A stretch of 64,000 bases of DNA, taken from Acidobacteriota bacterium (GTDB taxonomy: Bacteria > Acidobacteriota > CAIWXX01). Below the pieces are notes generated by a model. It made no database searches and was not told the DNA's origin. It worked only from the letters and a program-made list of their open reading frames with translations. The DNA is taken from the NCBI GenBank assembly GCA_040755995.1, contig JBFMAF010000035.1, positions 192,001-256,000 on the forward strand, in the 5' to 3' direction. Below are positions 51,007-62,698 of the stretch, piece after piece (the first letter of the stretch is position 1; every line of letters starts with the position of its first letter). The translations under genes were made by a program, and so were the position numbers.

Positions 51007-51507
51007 CTACGGCCCGAGCAGCTCCATGACGTCCTTCTCGACCTGCTTTTCGTCCCCGGCCGAGTACCCCTGGTACATTCGTCGTATCCTGCCTTCACGG
51101 TCGACGAGCATTGTGAGGGGAAGGGACTTCTCCGGCGCATACAGTCTCGCGACCTCGGCCTTGCTGTCGAGCAGGATCGGGAACGTCAGCTTGTAGCGCC
51201 GCACGTGAGCTCGGATCTTGGCGACGTCCCCGGGCTCATCGATGCTGATCCCGGCTACGAGCAGCCCACGCTCGCCCAGCCGCTCGTAGAGCCGCTGCAG
51301 ATGAGGGTGCTCGCGCGCGCACGGCTCGCACCACGTCGCGAAGAACGTGATCAGGAGAACGCCCTTGCCGAGATGCTCGTTCAGCACGAACTTCCGGCCG
51401 TCGAGGGTTGGGAGCGTGAAGTTGGGCATCCGGTCGGCCGCCTGTGCCACAGCCGCGAAGAGGCCGAGCAGTGTCAGCAGAAGAGTCACTCTGCCCGGCA
51501 CGGTCAT
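51007..51507 (-). CDS. TlpA-family thiol-disulfide oxidoreductase
   Basis: Signal peptide, PNFTLPTLDG, FFATWCEPC, LP.T.LVDREG. Confidence 0.9.
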   Translation of the reverse strand: MTVPGRVTLLLTLLGLFAAVAQAADRMPNFTLPTLDGRKFVLNEHLGKGVLLITFFATWCEPCAREHPHLQRLYERLGERGLLVAGISIDEPGDVAKIRAHVRRYKLTFPILLDSKAEVARLYAPEKSLPLTMLVDREGRIRRMYQGYSAGDEKQVEKDVMELLGP

Positions 51508-51539
51508 TTGCCACCCGCACGGGGTGCGCAGTCCGGCGT

Positions 51540-52409
51540 TCACTTGCTGAGCGCCTGAACGATCGCCGGCTCGATCTTGCTGTCCGGGAAGCCGACGTCT
51601 TTGTACACGATCGTCTGCTTCCGGTCGATCACCACGTTCAGCGGGATGTAGCCATCGTCGTTGTAGAGGTCCCACGCGAGCTCGTTCGTGTCGGCGAGGA
51701 CCGGGAACTGGAGTCCGTAGCTCTTCGCCCACGTCGAGCAGTCCGCTTGATCCGGCGGGTTGCCGTTGTAGTCCTCTATCAGCACGCTGAGAATGACGAA
51801 TCCGCGATCCCGGTATTTCTCAAAAAGCGCCTCTGCTTCGCTCGCCTCATCCTGGCAGGGGCCGCACCACATCGCGGACAGATCGAGCAGCACCACCTTC
51901 CCGGCGTAGTCCCTAAGCGACCTCGCAGCTCCATCCTGGTCCGTCAGCGTGAAATTGATCGCCTGCTGTCCGACCTGAGTGCCCGGCGTCGGAAGTACGA
52001 TCTGCTTCGTGCCGCTGAAGTTGCCCGCCGCATCGCGCAGCTTCACGTTCAGCTTGACATACCTGCTCTGGTCGCAGGCTACCTGGATCTTGACGGTGTC
52101 CGTTCCGGTGGCGAGCTGGTACTTCGGCTTGGTGAGCTGCACGCTGACTTCGCTCGTGGACCCCGAGGACCGCACTATGACGACCTTCAGGAACCCATTC
52201 CGGAGATTCAGCCCCATGTCCGAGAACGTGAACTTCAAGGCGACGGTGGTCGTCTTGCCCTGAGAGATCACGGTGGGCGCGGCCGTGATGGTCTTGATCA
52301 CCGGGATGTCACCGGCGACCGGCGCTTCCGAGGCCCGGGCCGCCGGGACCAAAGCGAGCGCAATCAGCGTTCCCAGAGAGGCCAACCTCCGAAGTGTGCA
52401 TACGACCAT
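51540..52409 (-). CDS. Secreted redoxin (TlpA-like) with extra N-terminal beta domain
   Basis: Signal peptide, basic beta-rich domain, NFTLTDQDG, SAMWCGPC, YIPLNVVID; AAGGAG RBS. Confidence 0.85.
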   Translation of the reverse strand: MVVCTLRRLASLGTLIALALVPAARASEAPVAGDIPVIKTITAAPTVISQGKTTTVALKFTFSDMGLNLRNGFLKVVIVRSSGSTSEVSVQLTKPKYQLATGTDTVKIQVACDQSRYVKLNVKLRDAAGNFSGTKQIVLPTPGTQVGQQAINFTLTDQDGAARSLRDYAGKVVLLDLSAMWCGPCQDEASEAEALFEKYRDRGFVILSVLIEDYNGNPPDQADCSTWAKSYGLQFPVLADTNELAWDLYNDDGYIPLNVVIDRKQTIVYKDVGFPDSKIEPAIVQALSK

Positions 52410-52605
52410 CACGGTTGCTCCTTTCCGCAAATGCTCTGCCCGACGCAGGCCAGTATAGCGAAACGGTGCGCCATCCCTCAAGCGAAATGAAGCGCCTGGG
52501 CCCTCCGCTGCAAGAACTGTGACACGCGTCACAGCGGCATGTAACTTAAACCAAACTGGGAACCACACGGTCTATATAGACAAGGCCGTTGCGAGGAGGA
52601 ATGAC

Positions 52606-53466
52606 ATGATCTTGAAAGCGCTGCACGCGATCGCTCTCCTGGGAGTCCTGACAAGCGCAGTGTCAGCAAGACCCGCGGATCTCTCGCCGTGGGAATCCGA
52701 CCAGGTGGCTGCCCAGGTCCGGTCGCTGAACATCGTCAATCAACTCAATCTCACGCCAGCCCAGCTGGACCAGATCATCCCGCTCGCTCAGCAGGACGTG
52801 ACCGAGCGAAGCGCGCTCGTGCAGAGACGCGAGGCGGCTGAGCCGCAGCTGCTGGCCGCCGCTTCACGCCTGCGCGAGGAGCTCAAGGACGGGTTCAACA
52901 CGACACCCGCGGCCGAGCAGGAATGGCACCGCGTCCACGGCCCGCTGCTCGACATGTTCCTGGACTACAGGCAGCATCGCGACGAGCGAATCACCGCCGC
53001 GATGCAGGTCCTGACTCCCAACCAGCTCGCCCTGATCTCGCGTTTCAAGCCCTGCGTAGTGCCGATCAAGGACTACCGTGACCCGGCCCGCATCGGGCAG
53101 GCGTCAGCCGGGTCGAGGATCGAGGAGGGGCTCGAGCGTCTGCGGGAGATCCCCGAGCCACTGTTCCAGAGAATCCGGCCTCGCTTGCACGAGCGTCTCT
53201 CCGAGAAGTTGCGCCTCCACTATGACCCTGCCGAGCTGACTCAGAAGGTGCGCGCGTTCGAGCGCGCGGTGAACGAGGTGCGCGCAATGTCAGACCTCGA
53301 TTTCGAGGCCAAGAAGTCGATGATCGCGGAGGAGCTGGCTCCGGCCGAGCACGCTGCGGAGGGGCAGGAGCTGCGCGGGCGCACAGGCGAGTTCCTGTTG
53401 TCCCCAGAGGGGCTCGATGTCCTGGAAACGAAGCGCGCACTCGTGAAATCGGGCGAGTCACGATGA
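52606..53466 (+). CDS. Secreted helical protein with LTxxQ (Spy/CpxP-like) motifs
   Basis: GAGGAG RBS, signal peptide, LNLTPAQ and VLTPNQ; stop overlaps next start (ATGA). Confidence 0.7.
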   Translation: MILKALHAIALLGVLTSAVSARPADLSPWESDQVAAQVRSLNIVNQLNLTPAQLDQIIPLAQQDVTERSALVQRREAAEPQLLAAASRLREELKDGFNTTPAAEQEWHRVHGPLLDMFLDYRQHRDERITAAMQVLTPNQLALISRFKPCVVPIKDYRDPARIGQASAGSRIEEGLERLREIPEPLFQRIRPRLHERLSEKLRLHYDPAELTQKVRAFERAVNEVRAMSDLDFEAKKSMIAEELAPAEHAAEGQELRGRTGEFLLSPEGLDVLETKRALVKSGESR

Positions 53467-54635
53467 TCCGGCCCATGCCGCTGCGGCGCCGCGAGTTCAT
53501 CCGGCGCGCCTGCGCCGCCGGAGCAGGCATCTGCCTCGCTTGCGCGCGGCCGTTCGCGAGGCCGGCGGTGGCCGAGGCCGCCGGTCGCGAAGCGCGCTAC
53601 TACAGGCGCTTGTCAGGAGGAAGGGTCCACTGCTACCTGTGCCCGTGCAACCCATCGATGCAGGCATGTGGGGTCCTGGAAGACGGCGAGACCTGCTGGT
53701 GCCACGTGAGGACGAATCGTGCCGGCCGGCTCTACGTCACCAACTACGCGCGCCTCGCCGCGATCCACATCGACCCTGTGGAGAAGAGCCCTCTGTATCA
53801 CGTAATGCCGGGGGCGAAGGTCATGGCCGTGGCAGCGCCCGGTTGCAGCCTCGCTTGCATCTGCTGTCAGAATTGGGAGATGTCGCAGGTCGGGGTCGAC
53901 GATCTGGAGACGATCGAGGCGTCTCCGAGTGAGATCGTCGATCGAGCCGTCCAGACGCGATCCACCGGCATCGCGTTCACGTACACGGAGCCCGTGGTGT
54001 ATTTCGAGTATGTGGTCGACACCGCCGCCATCGCGCGCAAACGCGGCCTGCGGGTTCTCGTCTCCACGGGCGGTTACATCACCACCGAGCCGTTGCGCGA
54101 ACTCTGCCGGTATGTGGACGCATTCTCGGTGAGCGTGAAGGGGTTCAGTGAGAAGTTCTACCTGGACAACTGCCGCGGGAGTTTCAAGGTGGTGCTGGAG
54201 AGTCTGAGGACGATCCGGGAGGAAGGGGTGTGGCTCGAGATCCCGGTTCTGATTATCCCCGGCCTCAGCGACAGGATCCAGGATGTGTCGTGGTTCTGTG
54301 GTTGGGTGAGGGACAATCTGGGCACGGAGGTACCGGTCCACTTCATTCGATTCTCGCCGGCGTACCGTCTGCAGAACCTGTCGCCGACCCCTGTGCGTGT
54401 TCTGGAGGCGGCGCGGACGGCGGCGACCAGGGCAGGCCTTCGGTACGCGTACATTGGCAACGTCCCCGGCCACGACGCGAACAACACCAACTGCCCGTCC
54501 TGCGGCCGGCTGCTGATCCAGCGTCTGGGCTTTCAGACCATCGGCAACGCGCTGGTTCCGGCGCGCAATGCTGGATCGCCGCAGCACGACTCGTGCCCGG
54601 CGTGCGGGCAGCAGATCCCGGGCCTCTGGCGCTGA
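53463..54635 (+). CDS. amrS: AmmeMemoRadiSam system radical SAM enzyme with Tat-like signal
   Basis: RRREFIRRACAAG; CYLCP..C...C.CHVR, DPVEKSPLYH, GCSLACICCQNWEMSQ, AFTYTEP, YIGNVPGH, CPSCG. Confidence 0.9.
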   Translation: MIRPMPLRRREFIRRACAAGAGICLACARPFARPAVAEAAGREARYYRRLSGGRVHCYLCPCNPSMQACGVLEDGETCWCHVRTNRAGRLYVTNYARLAAIHIDPVEKSPLYHVMPGAKVMAVAAPGCSLACICCQNWEMSQVGVDDLETIEASPSEIVDRAVQTRSTGIAFTYTEPVVYFEYVVDTAAIARKRGLRVLVSTGGYITTEPLRELCRYVDAFSVSVKGFSEKFYLDNCRGSFKVVLESLRTIREEGVWLEIPVLIIPGLSDRIQDVSWFCGWVRDNLGTEVPVHFIRFSPAYRLQNLSPTPVRVLEAARTAATRAGLRYAYIGNVPGHDANNTNCPSCGRLLIQRLGFQTIGNALVPARNAGSPQHDSCPACGQQIPGLWR

Positions 54636-54971: not shown

Positions 54972-55208
54972 ATGACGACAGCGGTCAAGGCAGTCTACGA
55001 GGACGGTGTGTTCAAGCCTAAGGAACCCGTGCAGCTGGAGGAGCACGCCGAGGTGGAGGTGATGATCCCTGCCCATGTGCCTGTGGACGACGACGATCCC
55101 ACGGGCTGGAGGGCGGCCGAGGAGATGGTCGGCTGCATTACTGAGGAACTGGTCGGCGAAGACGTCGCCGTCAACCACGACCGATACATCTACCGCCGCG
55201 ACCCGTGA
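54972..55208 (+). CDS. Antitoxin, AF2212/DUF104-like
   Basis: VKAVYEDGVFKP.EPV.L; C-terminal DVAVNHDRYIY; overlaps toxin start (GTGA). Confidence 0.8.
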   Translation: MTTAVKAVYEDGVFKPKEPVQLEEHAEVEVMIPAHVPVDDDDPTGWRAAEEMVGCITEELVGEDVAVNHDRYIYRRDP

Positions 55209-55636
55209 TCTTCGTCGACACCGGGTTCTTCTTCGCGCTGTTCGCAATCGAGGAGCGCGCCAGGCACACGCAGGCCCGGCAGCTTCTCTCAACCATGCGG
55301 GGACGCAAACTCTCCGATATGTTGATCACGACAGACCACATTGTGCTTGAGACCCTCACGCTCATTCAGACGACGGTGAAGCGGAACGCTCATGCGCGCG
55401 CGGTCTTCGTGGGTGAGAAGCTGTATGCCGAGCGGCTTGCCCGAATCTACCGAACCAACTTCGAGGAGCAGGTGGAGGCCTTCGCCTATCTCAAGCAGCA
55501 TCGGGACAAGCCCTTTAGCGCGGTCGACTGTTTGAGTTTCGTGGTGATGCTCAAACTCGGCATCCAGGAAGCATGGACTTTCGATGGGCACTTCACGCAC
55601 CGCTTCGTCGCGCGCCCTGGCCCGAAGCAGAAGTAG
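55205..55636 (+). CDS. vapC: Type II TA toxin, VapC/PIN domain
   Basis: MIFVDTG, TTDHIVLET, FSAVDCLSFVVM, AWTFDGHF. Confidence 0.9.
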   Translation: MIFVDTGFFFALFAIEERARHTQARQLLSTMRGRKLSDMLITTDHIVLETLTLIQTTVKRNAHARAVFVGEKLYAERLARIYRTNFEEQVEAFAYLKQHRDKPFSAVDCLSFVVMLKLGIQEAWTFDGHFTHRFVARPGPKQK

Positions 55637-59433: not shown

Positions 59434-62109
59434 CTACTCCTCCACCGGCGCGAAGCGGCCCTGGAAGAAGCGCAGGTGCGGCGGCTCGTAGACGAAGCGC
59501 AGGCCCTTGATCGTGTGGCGCCGCTCGTAGAGCCGGATGATCCCGTCGGCCGTCGCCCGCAAGTGATCCTCGCTGTAGACGCGCCGCGGGATCGTCAGGC
59601 GCACCAGCTCGAGCGACGGCCGGTAGTTCTTGCCGGTTTGCGCGTCACGGCCCTTTGAAACGTTGCCCCGCTCCATCACCCGCACGCCGGTCTCGATGTA
59701 GATCTCGGCCGCCAGTCGCTGCGCCGGGTACTCATCCTGGTCGATGTGCGGCAGGAAGCGCCTCGCATCGATGAAGATCGCGTGGCTGCCCGGAGGCATC
59801 ACGATGGGGACGCCCTCATGGAGGAGCCTCCCGCCGAGATACGCGGCCTGTTCGACGCGCGATCTGATGTATCGATCATCCAGCATCTCCTTGACACCCA
59901 GAGCCATCGCGGCGAGCTCCGAGGCCGACAGCCCGCCGTCTCTCACGTTGCCCTCGTAGACCCGCAGCATCTCTTCGGCCTTCGCCTTCAGCTCCTCGTT
60001 CTCCTTGAACGCCAGGAGGCCGCCCATGTTGATCAGGAAGTCCTTCTTGCCCGAGACGGTGCAGCCGTCCCCGTAGAGCATCATCTCGCGGAGAATGTCG
60101 CGTATGCGGGTCTTGCGATACCGGGGATCGCGCTTCTGAATGAAGTATGCGTTCTCCACAGCCCTTGTCGCATCGAACAGCACCGGGATCTCCTTCGAGC
60201 TGCAGTAGGTGTACACCTCTTTCATGTTGTCCATGCTGACCGGCTGGCCTCCGGCCATATTCACCGAGTGCTCGAAAGAGATGTAAGCCACCTTGCCGGC
60301 GCCATGCTTGTCCACGACGGCGCGCAGCTTGTCCATGTCGATGTTGCCCTTCCACGGGAAATCGTTCGTCGGATCGTGCGCCGCGTCCACGATGATGTCG
60401 ATGAAGACACCTCCGGCCATTTCCTGGTGGAGCTTCGTCGTGGTGAAGTACATGTTGCCTGGGACCAGCTGGCCGGGCTTGATCATGATCTGGCTAAGAA
60501 TGTGCTCGGCCGCCCGCCCCTGGTGCGTCGGAACGACGTGCTCGTAGCCGTAGATGTCCTTGATCGCGGCCACGAAGTGCTGGTAGGCGTCGCTTGTGGC
60601 GGGAGTTGTCCGGGCGGCATCGTGGGCGGCCCACTGGTCGGTGCTCATCGCCGAGGTTCCGGAATCCGTGAGCAGGTCGATGGATACATCGGCCGACCTC
60701 AGCAAGAACGTGTTGTAGCCCGCCTCGCGAACGGCCTTCTCCCGCTGGCTCCGATTGATCTGCGCGATCCTCTCGATCGTATGAATCAAGAACGGATTGC
60801 AGTCGAATTCGAACTCGTCCAGATCCGCGAAGATCGAGCGGAAACGGAGCTGGTCGTGCCACTTGCCGGTGCCCGCCGGATCGAGCCCGGCGACCTTGTC
60901 GCGCTGCCTGTAGACGTTGATCACCGCGCGGGCGATCTGGTCGAGCTGCGCGTTGGTCAGCGCGAGCCGCGGCACCTGTATGGGCACAAGGCTGTCGCGC
61001 CCCACCAGGCCGGCGACGAGCGCGCGCACGCCCGAGGTCTGGTATAGAGCGCAGGCAAAGGCGTGCTGTGCGTAAGACCTGATTTGCGGCAGCACTTCGT
61101 CGGCCTTCACGTAGGCTCCGTCGCACCCGCGCTCGAGCGGTACGCCCGCTTCCTTCAACTTCGCCGTGAACCTCTCGGCCTGGTGCATGATCCAGTGCAC
61201 CTCCGGCTCGATGCACATCTCGTCCAGCCCCCTGGCAAGCACCTCCATGGTCCTGCCCGACATGCCTCCGTAGGTGTGCAGCCCCTCGTATACGACCACC
61301 TCGTTGATGAACTTCTCGTGGTGGGCGGGATTGTCGGTGGCGATCAGCCCGCCGGTGCTGCACCTGGCATCCTGAGCGCCGTCGAACACAAGCACGTGCG
61401 CCGTCTTGGCGATCTGCTTGACTATCTCCGCTATCGTCCGATGACCGTACGCAGGCTCGTGGCGCTGGACATACCAGGCGTTCTCCACGATCCTCGAAGC
61501 GTCCATGACCAGGCGCAGCCCGTGCCGGTCGGCGGCCGCGCGCACGGCCATCAGGTTCGCCATGCTGAACGGGTGCTGCCCATCGGCAAATGTCTGCATC
61601 CCCACGAACGCAACCCCGCCCTTCGAGAGCGTCGATTCCAGCCTGCGGACATCCACGTTGCCCGTGAACAGACTCTCCTCGTGGTCGCGAACGTCGATCA
61701 CACTGATCCCACGAGGCGACAGGTGGTCGATGCGCGTGAGCGCGTTGCTGGTGATGGCGGATCCCTTCGGCAGCATGGTCGAGGCCACGAGCTTCACGCT
61801 GCCGGTCAGATTGTGCGTCGGGCAAACGTACGTGTGCCCGAACACCCTCGTGACTACGTGCTGCAGCGTCTCGAAGTTGCGCGCGCCCGCATACGCCTCG
61901 TCGCCGATCAACTGTCCCGCCAGCTGCTCCTGGCTGTAGGCGCCGGTGCCGGTCGAGCACATGTCGAAGCTGACCTGCGACGGCGTCAGGTTGAATACGT
62001 TGAAGTGCGCGCTCGCCAGGTGCTTCTTCCGCTCTTCGAGCGCAGGGAACGCGATCAGACGGACCGTCTTTATCTTGTGAGGTTCGTGCAGAGGGATCCT
62101 GTTGCTCAT
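59434..62109 (-). CDS. Tandem-duplicated tyrosine phenol-lyase/tryptophanase-family beta-eliminating lyase (891 aa)
   Basis: Two full lyase units. N-half: EPHKIK, GDEAYAG, YEGLHTYGG. C-half: DLLTDSGT, THQGRAAE, YFTTT, SGKKD, MERG, RLTIPRRVY, LRFF. Confidence 0.92.
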   Translation of the reverse strand: MSNRIPLHEPHKIKTVRLIAFPALEERKKHLASAHFNVFNLTPSQVSFDMCSTGTGAYSQEQLAGQLIGDEAYAGARNFETLQHVVTRVFGHTYVCPTHNLTGSVKLVASTMLPKGSAITSNALTRIDHLSPRGISVIDVRDHEESLFTGNVDVRRLESTLSKGGVAFVGMQTFADGQHPFSMANLMAVRAAADRHGLRLVMDASRIVENAWYVQRHEPAYGHRTIAEIVKQIAKTAHVLVFDGAQDARCSTGGLIATDNPAHHEKFINEVVVYEGLHTYGGMSGRTMEVLARGLDEMCIEPEVHWIMHQAERFTAKLKEAGVPLERGCDGAYVKADEVLPQIRSYAQHAFACALYQTSGVRALVAGLVGRDSLVPIQVPRLALTNAQLDQIARAVINVYRQRDKVAGLDPAGTGKWHDQLRFRSIFADLDEFEFDCNPFLIHTIERIAQINRSQREKAVREAGYNTFLLRSADVSIDLLTDSGTSAMSTDQWAAHDAARTTPATSDAYQHFVAAIKDIYGYEHVVPTHQGRAAEHILSQIMIKPGQLVPGNMYFTTTKLHQEMAGGVFIDIIVDAAHDPTNDFPWKGNIDMDKLRAVVDKHGAGKVAYISFEHSVNMAGGQPVSMDNMKEVYTYCSSKEIPVLFDATRAVENAYFIQKRDPRYRKTRIRDILREMMLYGDGCTVSGKKDFLINMGGLLAFKENEELKAKAEEMLRVYEGNVRDGGLSASELAAMALGVKEMLDDRYIRSRVEQAAYLGGRLLHEGVPIVMPPGSHAIFIDARRFLPHIDQDEYPAQRLAAEIYIETGVRVMERGNVSKGRDAQTGKNYRPSLELVRLTIPRRVYSEDHLRATADGIIRLYERRHTIKGLRFVYEPPHLRFFQGRFAPVEE

Positions 62110-62215
62110 TTCTGTCTCCCTTCCTGAGACTCAGGCGGAATACTATAGACCGGCGCAGCAAGGTGGTCAAACCCGGCGAGGCGCTCCTGTCGTAGTGAGT
62201 GCAGAGCGGGCGGGC

Positions 62216-62698
62216 CTACGCCCGGCGGCCGGGCCGGATGGTGCCGCCGGCGGGCTCGTCATCTGCCAGCTGCTTCCGAACTCCCGCCAGGAGCTTTCGA
62301 TCCGAGAGGTCGGCCAGAGAGAACTCGGCTAGGACATTCCTGATCCGCTTGTTGATCAGCGACCAGATAAGCCGGCATTCACACGAATCGCTCAACATAC
62401 AAAGATCCGGATCGCCCACGCACTCGACAATACTGATCTGGCCGATCGAGGCCTCGACGATCTCTCCGATCTTGATCTTCTGCGGCTCACGAGCGAGGAA
62501 ATACCCGCCGCCGCGCCCGCTTACTGCCCTGATGAGCCCCCTGTTCTTCAGGGCGATGACAAGCTGCTCGAGGTACTTGTTCGAAATCCTGGTACGTTCA
62601 GAGATCTCCTTCAGGCTGACTGGCAGGCCGTCCTCTTGGTGCCTGGACATGTCGAGCATCATTCTCAGGGCGTATCGCGCGCGGGTCGAGAGTTTCAT
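62216..62698 (-). CDS. Rrf2-family transcriptional regulator (Cys-rich, possible Fe-S)
   Basis: MKLSTRARYALR, KYLEQL, GRGGGYFLAR, CVGDPDLCMLSDSCEC. Confidence 0.92.
   Translation of the reverse strand: MKLSTRARYALRMMLDMSRHQEDGLPVSLKEISERTRISNKYLEQLVIALKNRGLIRAVSGRGGGYFLAREPQKIKIGEIVEASIGQISIVECVGDPDLCMLSDSCECRLIWSLINKRIRNVLAEFSLADLSDRKLLAGVRKQLADDEPAGGTIRPGRRA

Follow-up and report, generated by a model that had tools for sequence, protein, structure and literature searches.

How can an enzyme that is normally assembled from identical subunits be encoded as two unequal copies in one chain, each lacking residues that the other retains? The question is raised by an open reading frame (ORF) at positions 59434-62109 (minus strand, as are all of its features below) in a 64,000-nucleotide stretch of contig JBFMAF010000035.1, from an Acidobacteriota bacterium (assembly GCA_040755995.1); the whole stretch is called the window here. 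Its 891-amino-acid product (P0001) consists of two units in tandem that resemble tyrosine phenol-lyase (TPL), a homotetramer of identical subunits of about 456 residues with four pyridoxal 5'-phosphate (PLP) sites (PMC10170061; most papers named here are cited from excerpts), whereas the fusion has two unequal units and half of its sites dead. We describe how the catalytic residues are divided between the two units, how the chain may assemble, what it probably cleaves, and how such fusions may have arisen.

Two lyase units with reciprocal losses

Profile searches find the same family twice in the ORF. Pfam Beta_elim_lyase matches it in two separate stretches, and the NCBIfam models for TPL (TIGR02618) and tryptophanase give two stretches each; the TIGR02618 score of 868.2 bits, against a curated cut-off of 720.7, is a total over both stretches rather than a score per half, and the protein falls under the cut-offs of the tryptophanase tests TIGR02617 and NF053783. 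Aligned with each other, the two units share 26% identity over 433 columns (E 2e-39). Residues 435-886 match residues 3-453 of the Citrobacter and Erwinia enzymes with no large gap; the C-terminal (C) unit is 52-53% identical to TPLs, with a predicted fold that follows theirs at a root mean square deviation (rmsd) of 1.0-1.7 Å over 453-456 columns. The second unit begins at residue 433, the equivalent of TPL residue 1 (nucleotide 60813), which agrees with the junction near 60800 between two lyase units of one ORF that an initial annotation had placed from the sequence alone. We therefore divide the chain into an N-terminal (N) unit (residues 1-425; 60835-62109), a linker (residues 426-438; 60796-60834) whose last six residues trace TPL residues 1-6, and the C unit (residues 439-891; 59437-60795).

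An assembly artefact or chance read-through can be ruled out. The best 120 of 1368 database matches are all 885-934 residues long, with 99-100% coverage and 69-77% identity; in 73 of the 80 loci retained from GTDB genomes the fusion is a single unbroken full-length ORF, several of the other seven lying at contig ends; and the linker span from D419 to P439 measures 21 residues in 185 of 187 close homologues. The G+C content around the ORF, 0.60-0.66, is similar to that of the flanking DNA.

The 187 close homologues are distinct full-length sequences (from 194 rows before deduplication) and carry the counts that follow, some conservation counts being taken from an alignment of 121 sequences; site residues are numbered as in TPL, from the alignment with the Citrobacter and Erwinia enzymes and a Pantoea TPL of equal length. 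In this family each active site combines residues of two subunits. Glu69, a cation ligand, is donated by the partner subunit. In tryptophanase, Tyr74 and Tyr307 act on the PLP of the neighbouring subunit (PMC2770544), and Tyr72 of chain B reaches the PLP of its partner (PMC11301627).

The N unit keeps these partner-donated residues. Its GDEAYAG motif (residues 69-75; 61885-61905) carries Glu71, the counterpart of Glu69, and Tyr73, the counterpart of the general acid Tyr71, and its YEGLHTYGG motif (residues 274-282; 61264-61290) carries Tyr280, the counterpart of Tyr291, with Leu277 at position 288; Glu69, Tyr71 and Tyr291 are each present in 187/187. Its own PLP site is dead: the lysine motif reads DGAQD (residues 243-247; 61369-61383), with lysine in 0/187 and glutamine in 181/187, and THQGR has become THNLT (residues 98-102). 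The C unit shows the converse. The PLP lysine, Lys689 (Lys257), lies in SGKKD (residues 686-690; 60040-60054), Thr556 (Thr124) in YFTTT (residues 554-558; 60436-60450), Met379 and Arg381 in MERG (residues 812-815; 59665-59676), and Phe448 and Phe449 in LRFF (residues 879-882; 59464-59475), alongside DSGT (residues 482-485), THQGRAAE (528-535), DATR (646-649) and the conserved arginine R837; Lys257, Thr124, Asn185, Asp214, Arg381, Arg404, Phe448 and Phe449 are each found in 187/187. Its counterpart of GDEAYAG has decayed to ARTTPAT (residues 499-505; 60595-60615), with Pro503 at the Tyr71 position, and the second donor loop reads YEGNVRDGG (residues 718-726, RDGG at 723-726; 59932-59958), with Asp724 at the Tyr291 position; tyrosine occurs at neither position in any of the 187, and aspartate takes the place of Tyr291 in 185.

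Every motif that the initial annotation had listed as kept or lost was found as written in the aligned units, and its reading that the degeneration is reciprocal is borne out: the losses against TPL are non-random and are conserved in the 187 close homologues and in a wider set of 95 tandem proteins. One detail needs amending, in that the DSGT motif of the N unit, described as lost, is altered without being wholly gone, S52, G54 and T55 being kept in 120, 120 and 118 of 121 sequences. In sequence, the C unit carries all of the same-subunit residues and the N unit all of the partner-donated ones, each lacking the other set, and the reciprocal half-site design is on this ground close to certain. 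An N:N interface would have no lysine and a C:C interface no acid, and therefore only the N:C interface should be productive, which very probably leaves each chain with a single PLP and a single working site, as the initial annotation had proposed. Nor is the N unit drifting: conservation reaches 97% or more at 123 of its positions and is highest in the arm segment (0.94) and in both donor loops (0.90 and 0.94). By analogy with point mutants of this family, in which changes of Tyr71 and Arg381 hit different substrates differently (PMC3870968), some side activities might persist in a C unit on its own; the initial annotation's expectation that neither half is active alone may fail for substrates with good leaving groups.

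Substrate and companion genes

Which reaction would such a composite site catalyse? The fusion shares with the TPLs of Citrobacter freundii and Erwinia/Pantoea (EC 4.1.99.2) the fold, Lys257, Thr124, Met379, Arg381, Phe448, and elements of the arm and central sheet. Five positions separate TPL from tryptophanase (PMC5805759), and four of them are of TPL type here, namely Thr556, Met812, Arg814 and Phe881 (Thr124, Met379, Arg381 and Phe448), in line with the earlier impression that the specificity residues look TPL-like rather than tryptophanase-like. Tryptophanase TnaA (EC 4.1.99.1), of the same family and fold, needs Asp137, Ile396 and His463 in E. coli numbering (PMC5805759), and these are replaced by Thr556, Arg814 and Phe881. 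In TPL, Thr124 and Arg381 hold the phenolic hydroxyl (PMC9262865). The fifth position, 288, is Leu277 in the N unit (121/121) and Asn721 in the C unit, not the Met288 of TPL; the fusion thus resembles TPL in its residues and yet is not a canonical TPL, departing from it in Met288 and in the homotetramer.

The companion genes point the same way. The source genome holds, outside the window, a separate intact single-unit gene with tryptophanase-type residues (G000:C5:7138-8472), and 46 of 49 fusion genomes, hand-chosen from the 80 loci and mutually related, hold a further family gene. All 40 companion genes that were read (39 genomes including G001, the companions of eight genomes being left out) have Asp124 with Ile or Val381, and His448 in 39/40; none is of TPL type. 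Because 40/40 companions are of tryptophanase type, the usable site of the fusion is probably TPL-type. Among own-phylum relatives without the fusion 19 of 39 also carry a family gene, so that the companion count speaks of a slot that the fusion fills, not of dependence on it. From these residues and genes we infer that the fusion is a PLP-dependent beta-eliminating lyase, probably of TPL type, and L-tyrosine, or an analogue with a closely related ring, is its likely substrate, which would be split into a phenol, pyruvate and ammonia, with a separate tryptophanase working alongside.

A different physiological substrate for the same architecture, such as a substituted tyrosine, a compound like dihydroxyphenylalanine (DOPA) or an S-substituted cysteine, selected through the Leu-His-Thr loop that the N unit donates, seems to us unlikely. 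Leu-His stands at positions 288-289 of the fusion and also of 31/31 intact single-unit relatives, TPL accepts DOPA, Ser, Cys and S-methyl-Cys (PMC10170061, table), and no conserved neighbouring genes point to a pathway. Against this, Thr124 and Arg381, which hold the phenolic hydroxyl, are (nearly) invariant together with Met379 and Phe448/449, and the kept Tyr71 speaks for a poor leaving group. A further relative, the thiocysteine lyase (SH) domain of the leinamycin-type polyketide synthase (9cen), shares the Beta_elim_lyase fold at 23-24% identity; that domain is embedded in the synthase and, in the excerpt of PMC3870968, has no equivalents of Tyr71 and Arg381, while the fusion stands alone and keeps both.

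Pairing of the units

With one working site expected per chain, it matters whether that site forms within a chain or between two. Two AlphaFold models were obtained, model 1 from close homologues only (predicted local distance difference test, pLDDT, 82.5; predicted template modelling score, pTM, 0.76) and model 2 from 138 diverse rows (alignment A2; pLDDT 95.6, pTM 0.94). In model 2 the C unit is canonical and matches whole TPL chains, arm included, at 1.0-1.7 Å (455 residues at 1.4 Å). By DSSP assignment the two units carry equal eight-residue strands, both the counterparts of TPL 8-15, at residues 11-18 (62056-62079; conservation 0.94 over segment 8-18) and at residues 440-447 (60769-60792), and the linker has a pLDDT of 96-97. 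Such arm strands pair across the non-catalytic interface (PMC2770544). Only one of 50 structural alignments of model 2 starts in the donor segments (6jy1_A, start 273, rmsd 7.0).

Model 1 presents another picture. It matches TPL at low rmsd only over about 403-412 residues, with the C unit from about residue 487, and residues 433-486 are displaced at pLDDT 40-69 (Foldseek rmsd about 12-13 Å); this segment includes the invariant site residues F468 and T481-T485. In 20 of its 50 structural alignments the N terminus of a partner chain falls on N-unit residues 56-73 or 259-283, which would set the donor loops beside the C core; the first residues of 4m2j_A, for example, lie on N-unit residue 259 in model 1 and are unmatched in model 2. 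The catalytic interface between N unit and C core in model 1 would thus be gained by tearing off the first 54 residues of the C unit.

Natural variants bear on the same point. Two proteins, P0282 (706 residues) and P0262 (625 residues), carry a miniature N unit ahead of a family enzyme that is intact, its donor and acceptor motifs all present; the miniature unit comprises the arm, the first helix and the small domain and has no large domain (TPL 4-67 and 310-441 in P0282). Such a unit can present the arm interface and cannot make the catalytic one, and it may cap the arm interface and so turn a tetramer into a dimer. Because of the confident model 2 and of these fusions whose N unit lacks a large domain, we infer that the linker bridges the two units at the arm interface, the non-catalytic one, with the active sites forming between two chains; the models make this arrangement fairly likely. 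A joint loss of Glu6 and Arg409/410, residues in contact in TPL, was weighed as a further sign of arm pairing and set aside, its pattern being mixed.

That one chain is instead its own catalytic dimer, its Tyr73 serving its own Lys689 and any further dimerisation being secondary, was the proposal of the initial annotation, and it is now disfavoured, being in our judgement rather improbable. In its favour, model 1 builds the catalytic interface of N unit and C core inside one chain, and the linker extends the natural termini by about six residues here, by more in other lineages. There is also a precedent in glycine decarboxylase (GLDC/GcvP), where the active site is formed within one chain. Against it, model 1 needs the displacement of residues 433-486 with F468 and T481-T485, model 2, whose confidence is far higher, is best read as units linked through their arms, and N units without a large domain occur in P0282 and P0262.

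The GLDC/GcvP likeness goes further, in that these are fold type I enzymes of two related units of which the N unit has glutamine in place of the PLP lysine (PMC7259800). They differ from the fusion in family and reaction, and occur as a single chain or an alpha-beta pair, also with split genes; Pfam and NCBIfam assign the fusion to Beta_elim_lyase, TPL and TnaA only, not to the GcvP family. No fused GcvP chain appears among the top 50 structural matches of either model, which leaves that comparison of geometry uninformative. In eukaryotic serine palmitoyltransferase (SPT), SPT1/SPT2 form a heterodimer in which one subunit lacks the lysine, leaving presumably a single site, and Coccolithovirus encodes SPT as a natural single chain whose N-terminal unit bears the lysine, the opposite order to that of the fusion (PMC6148460); SPT belongs to the alpha-oxoamine synthase (AOS) family, unlike the fusion. 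The design of a fused PLP enzyme with a dead N unit and an active C unit is thus already known from GLDC/GcvP, with SPT as a related precedent.

What then of the second pocket? Its phosphate cup residues Gly99, Arg100 and Lys256 are gone, and aspartate occupies the positions of Ser254 and Tyr291. That it senses a ligand, or acts allosterically, so as to tune the live site is improbable, though conservation among the 187 is 97% or more at eight N-unit positions (H99, N100, D176, D203, S205, R206, D243 and D247), several polar residues of the pocket being kept, and likewise at the C unit's Asp724, which would face the pocket. The same positions vary in divergent members of the lineage, as they would in a structural plug, and the gene context gives no clue to a ligand or regulator; judged from the sequences, a structural plug is the likelier reading, ahead of a regulatory role.

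A segment-swapped obligate dimer, in which N unit and C core come from one chain and residues 433-486 from a second, would take model 1 literally, with a hinge near Met488, inside the arm sheet at the tetramer centre; it is very improbable, as the segment has low confidence in model 1 and is canonical at pLDDT 95-98 in model 2. That the C unit works alone, with the N unit decaying as a passenger or serving only to stabilise it, is barely credible: N branches are longer than C branches and Tyr71 is dispensable for some substrates (PMC3870968), but the highly conserved N positions cluster around the arm and both donor loops, and Tyr291 is kept by the C unit in none of 95 tandem proteins.

Distribution, origin and surroundings

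On its sequences, the reciprocal half-site fusion is real, conserved and widespread. Homologues of about 890 residues with the same reciprocal pattern were found in number, 187/187 close full-length sequences showing it. Record titles name Acidobacteriota, Myxococcota, Gemmatimonadota, Planctomycetota, Eisenbacteria, Bacteroidetes, Desulfobulbaceae and others, and 328 of 343 pattern matches in GTDB genomes encode a relative, some of them possibly single-unit genes. Within its own phylum the fusion occurs only in the source genome (G000) and G001 among 41 genomes, and its distribution is therefore patchy. No clear stand-alone N unit was seen among the best 120 N-unit matches of 234-746 residues; among the matches listed, the close ones resemble cut-off fusions or fragments and the remainder are intact single units; a split-gene form may still exist. 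The ESM Atlas gave only single-unit clusters among the matches listed, and a metagenome scan with P0248 gave no match. In literature titles and abstract openings, with subscription journals mostly outside and supplements not covered, no description of a tandem TPL or tryptophanase was found.

Profile and word searches extended the tandem set to 95 proteins (the query, 11 and 83 more), the further ones being 847-971 residues long. All 95 keep Tyr71 and Tyr291 in the N unit and Lys257 in the C unit, and none keeps Tyr291 in the C unit; Tyr71 is retained in the C unit of nine and Lys257 in the N unit of 18. The reversed polarity, an active N unit with a donor C unit, occurs in 0/95. Half-decayed intermediates have lost Tyr291 of the C unit and the Arg381/Phe448 region of the N unit even where the N-unit lysine stays. 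Two minor lineages (17/95; P0248, P0249, P0251 and P0400-P0407 in one, P0245, P0411-P0413, P0415 and P0416 in the other) show milder decay and altered specificity residues, as in P0400 and P0245, and in their C units Arg381 and Phe448/449 are absent as such; from this they probably act on another substrate. A few of their members bear labels such as Pantanalinema, Stenomitos or Sericytochromatia, which mark them as cyanobacterial or Sericytochromatia metagenome-assembled genomes. The cluster of a divergent tandem protein, P0408, includes P0492, labelled Bathyarchaeia archaeon, and the fusion may thus occur in archaea.

A tree of C units with the donor-loop columns removed (47 rows) gives a main group (support 95/93) and a second group (98/96), the latter sister to the single-unit protein P0263 (100/97); branches leading to N units are longer than those to C units. 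Two independent fusion origins are suggested by these sequences; the approximately unbiased (AU) test does not reject a single-clade origin (p = 0.10). The best intact matches of the N unit, at 35-38% identity, are single-unit proteins (P0210-P0240) that share its YEGLHTYGG loop and, unlike the fusion, have one unit and have lost nothing, the loop and all catalytic residues being present in 31/31. They are likely kin of the gene before duplication, and the trees do not place them as sister to the fusion. This is a large TPL-like subfamily in its own right, with Leu-His-Thr at positions 288-290, known by database labels.

The explanation that we favour on balance joins these strands: a TPL-type lyase with reciprocal half-sites, assembled between chains. 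A TPL-like gene would have been duplicated in tandem and fused, with reciprocal loss to follow. Two chains would pair so that the PLP in each C unit is served by Tyr73 from the N unit of the opposite chain, in a TPL-like pseudo-tetramer of two live and two dead sites. Tethering of the C terminus of the N unit may have hampered closure of its small domain, so that the N site died first; the donor residues of the C unit would then serve nothing and be free to decay. In tryptophanase, closure moves the C-terminal segment 439-467 by up to 8 Å (PMC11301627), and in TPL closure is coupled to C-C cleavage (PMC9262865). The intermediates, in which Tyr291 of the C unit and the Arg381/Phe448 region of the N unit are missing although the N lysine may persist, would fit this account; as an explanation of the fixed polarity, tethering that hampers closure remains weak.

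Several points weigh against this explanation. Positions 288-289 read Leu-His, as against Met-Pro/Ser in TPL and Phe in tryptophanase, and no assay was found for the Leu-His subfamily; the genomes behind the companion-gene count are related and were picked by us. The 6jy1_A row of model 2 (start 273, rmsd 7.0) favours the opposite geometry, and the comparison of 20 with one alignments is not fully controlled, since in model 2 such matches can fall on the C unit's own segment instead. Single-unit rows of A2 align only to the C unit, a possible bias of model 2; DSSP strands and alignment ranges, not coordinates, underlie the reading of the interface; and longer linkers in other lineages might reach a catalytic partner in the same chain. 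The polarity argument presupposes that fusion arose more than once, and the AU test does not reject a single origin (p = 0.10). A broader scenario is accordingly put forward only as a tentative one, with the odds against it: fusion took place at least twice, perhaps three times with the forms that lack a large domain, always with the N site lost and turned donor; non-catalytic partners were linked and sites completed between two chains, with intermediates still living; the dead pocket of the main lineage may be a ligand sensor, and the minor lineages may have new substrate pockets.

Across the 80 related loci no conserved operon was found, and neighbour clusters recur in at most 10/80, overlapping-frame ORFs aside. 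The 76 adjacent ORFs belong to scattered Pfam families, the commonest being an RseP-like M50 protease (5); in several loci from Gemmatimonadota (L015, L016, L019, L020 and L041) the fusion lies just after this gene, an adjacency that looks like lineage synteny rather than function. In the window an Rrf2-family regulator, IscR/CymR-like and below the cut-offs of those models, lies directly upstream on the same strand (62216-62698, minus); neither this gene nor the Na/Ca exchanger or YifB had a tblastn match in the 80 related loci. A sigma-70-like site (62142-62170, minus; 10/12 matches) stands 33 nucleotides ahead of the start codon; such promoter-like sites are no more frequent in the region than expected by chance (one observed against 0.7). 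Elsewhere in the window, 53463-54635 (plus), 51007-52568 (minus) and 55205-55636 (minus) hold what we take by eye to be a radical-SAM-like ORF containing Cys clusters, two ORFs with thioredoxin-like CxxC motifs and one short ORF resembling a PIN domain.

As homotetramers, TPL and tryptophanase are textbook cases, and industry uses them as catalysts for L-DOPA and substituted tyrosines; here a widespread natural form encodes their partner-donated and same-subunit half-sites separately, so that the role of each half, and the open/closed asymmetry of the subunits, can be tested by single mutations. Many of these fusions are named 'tryptophanase' by NCBI, and many such database entries are probably not tryptophanases. 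Duplicates graded between a nearly intact and a fully reciprocal state offer a rare test case of a homomer becoming an obligate pseudo-heteromer, and of the fixation of its polarity.

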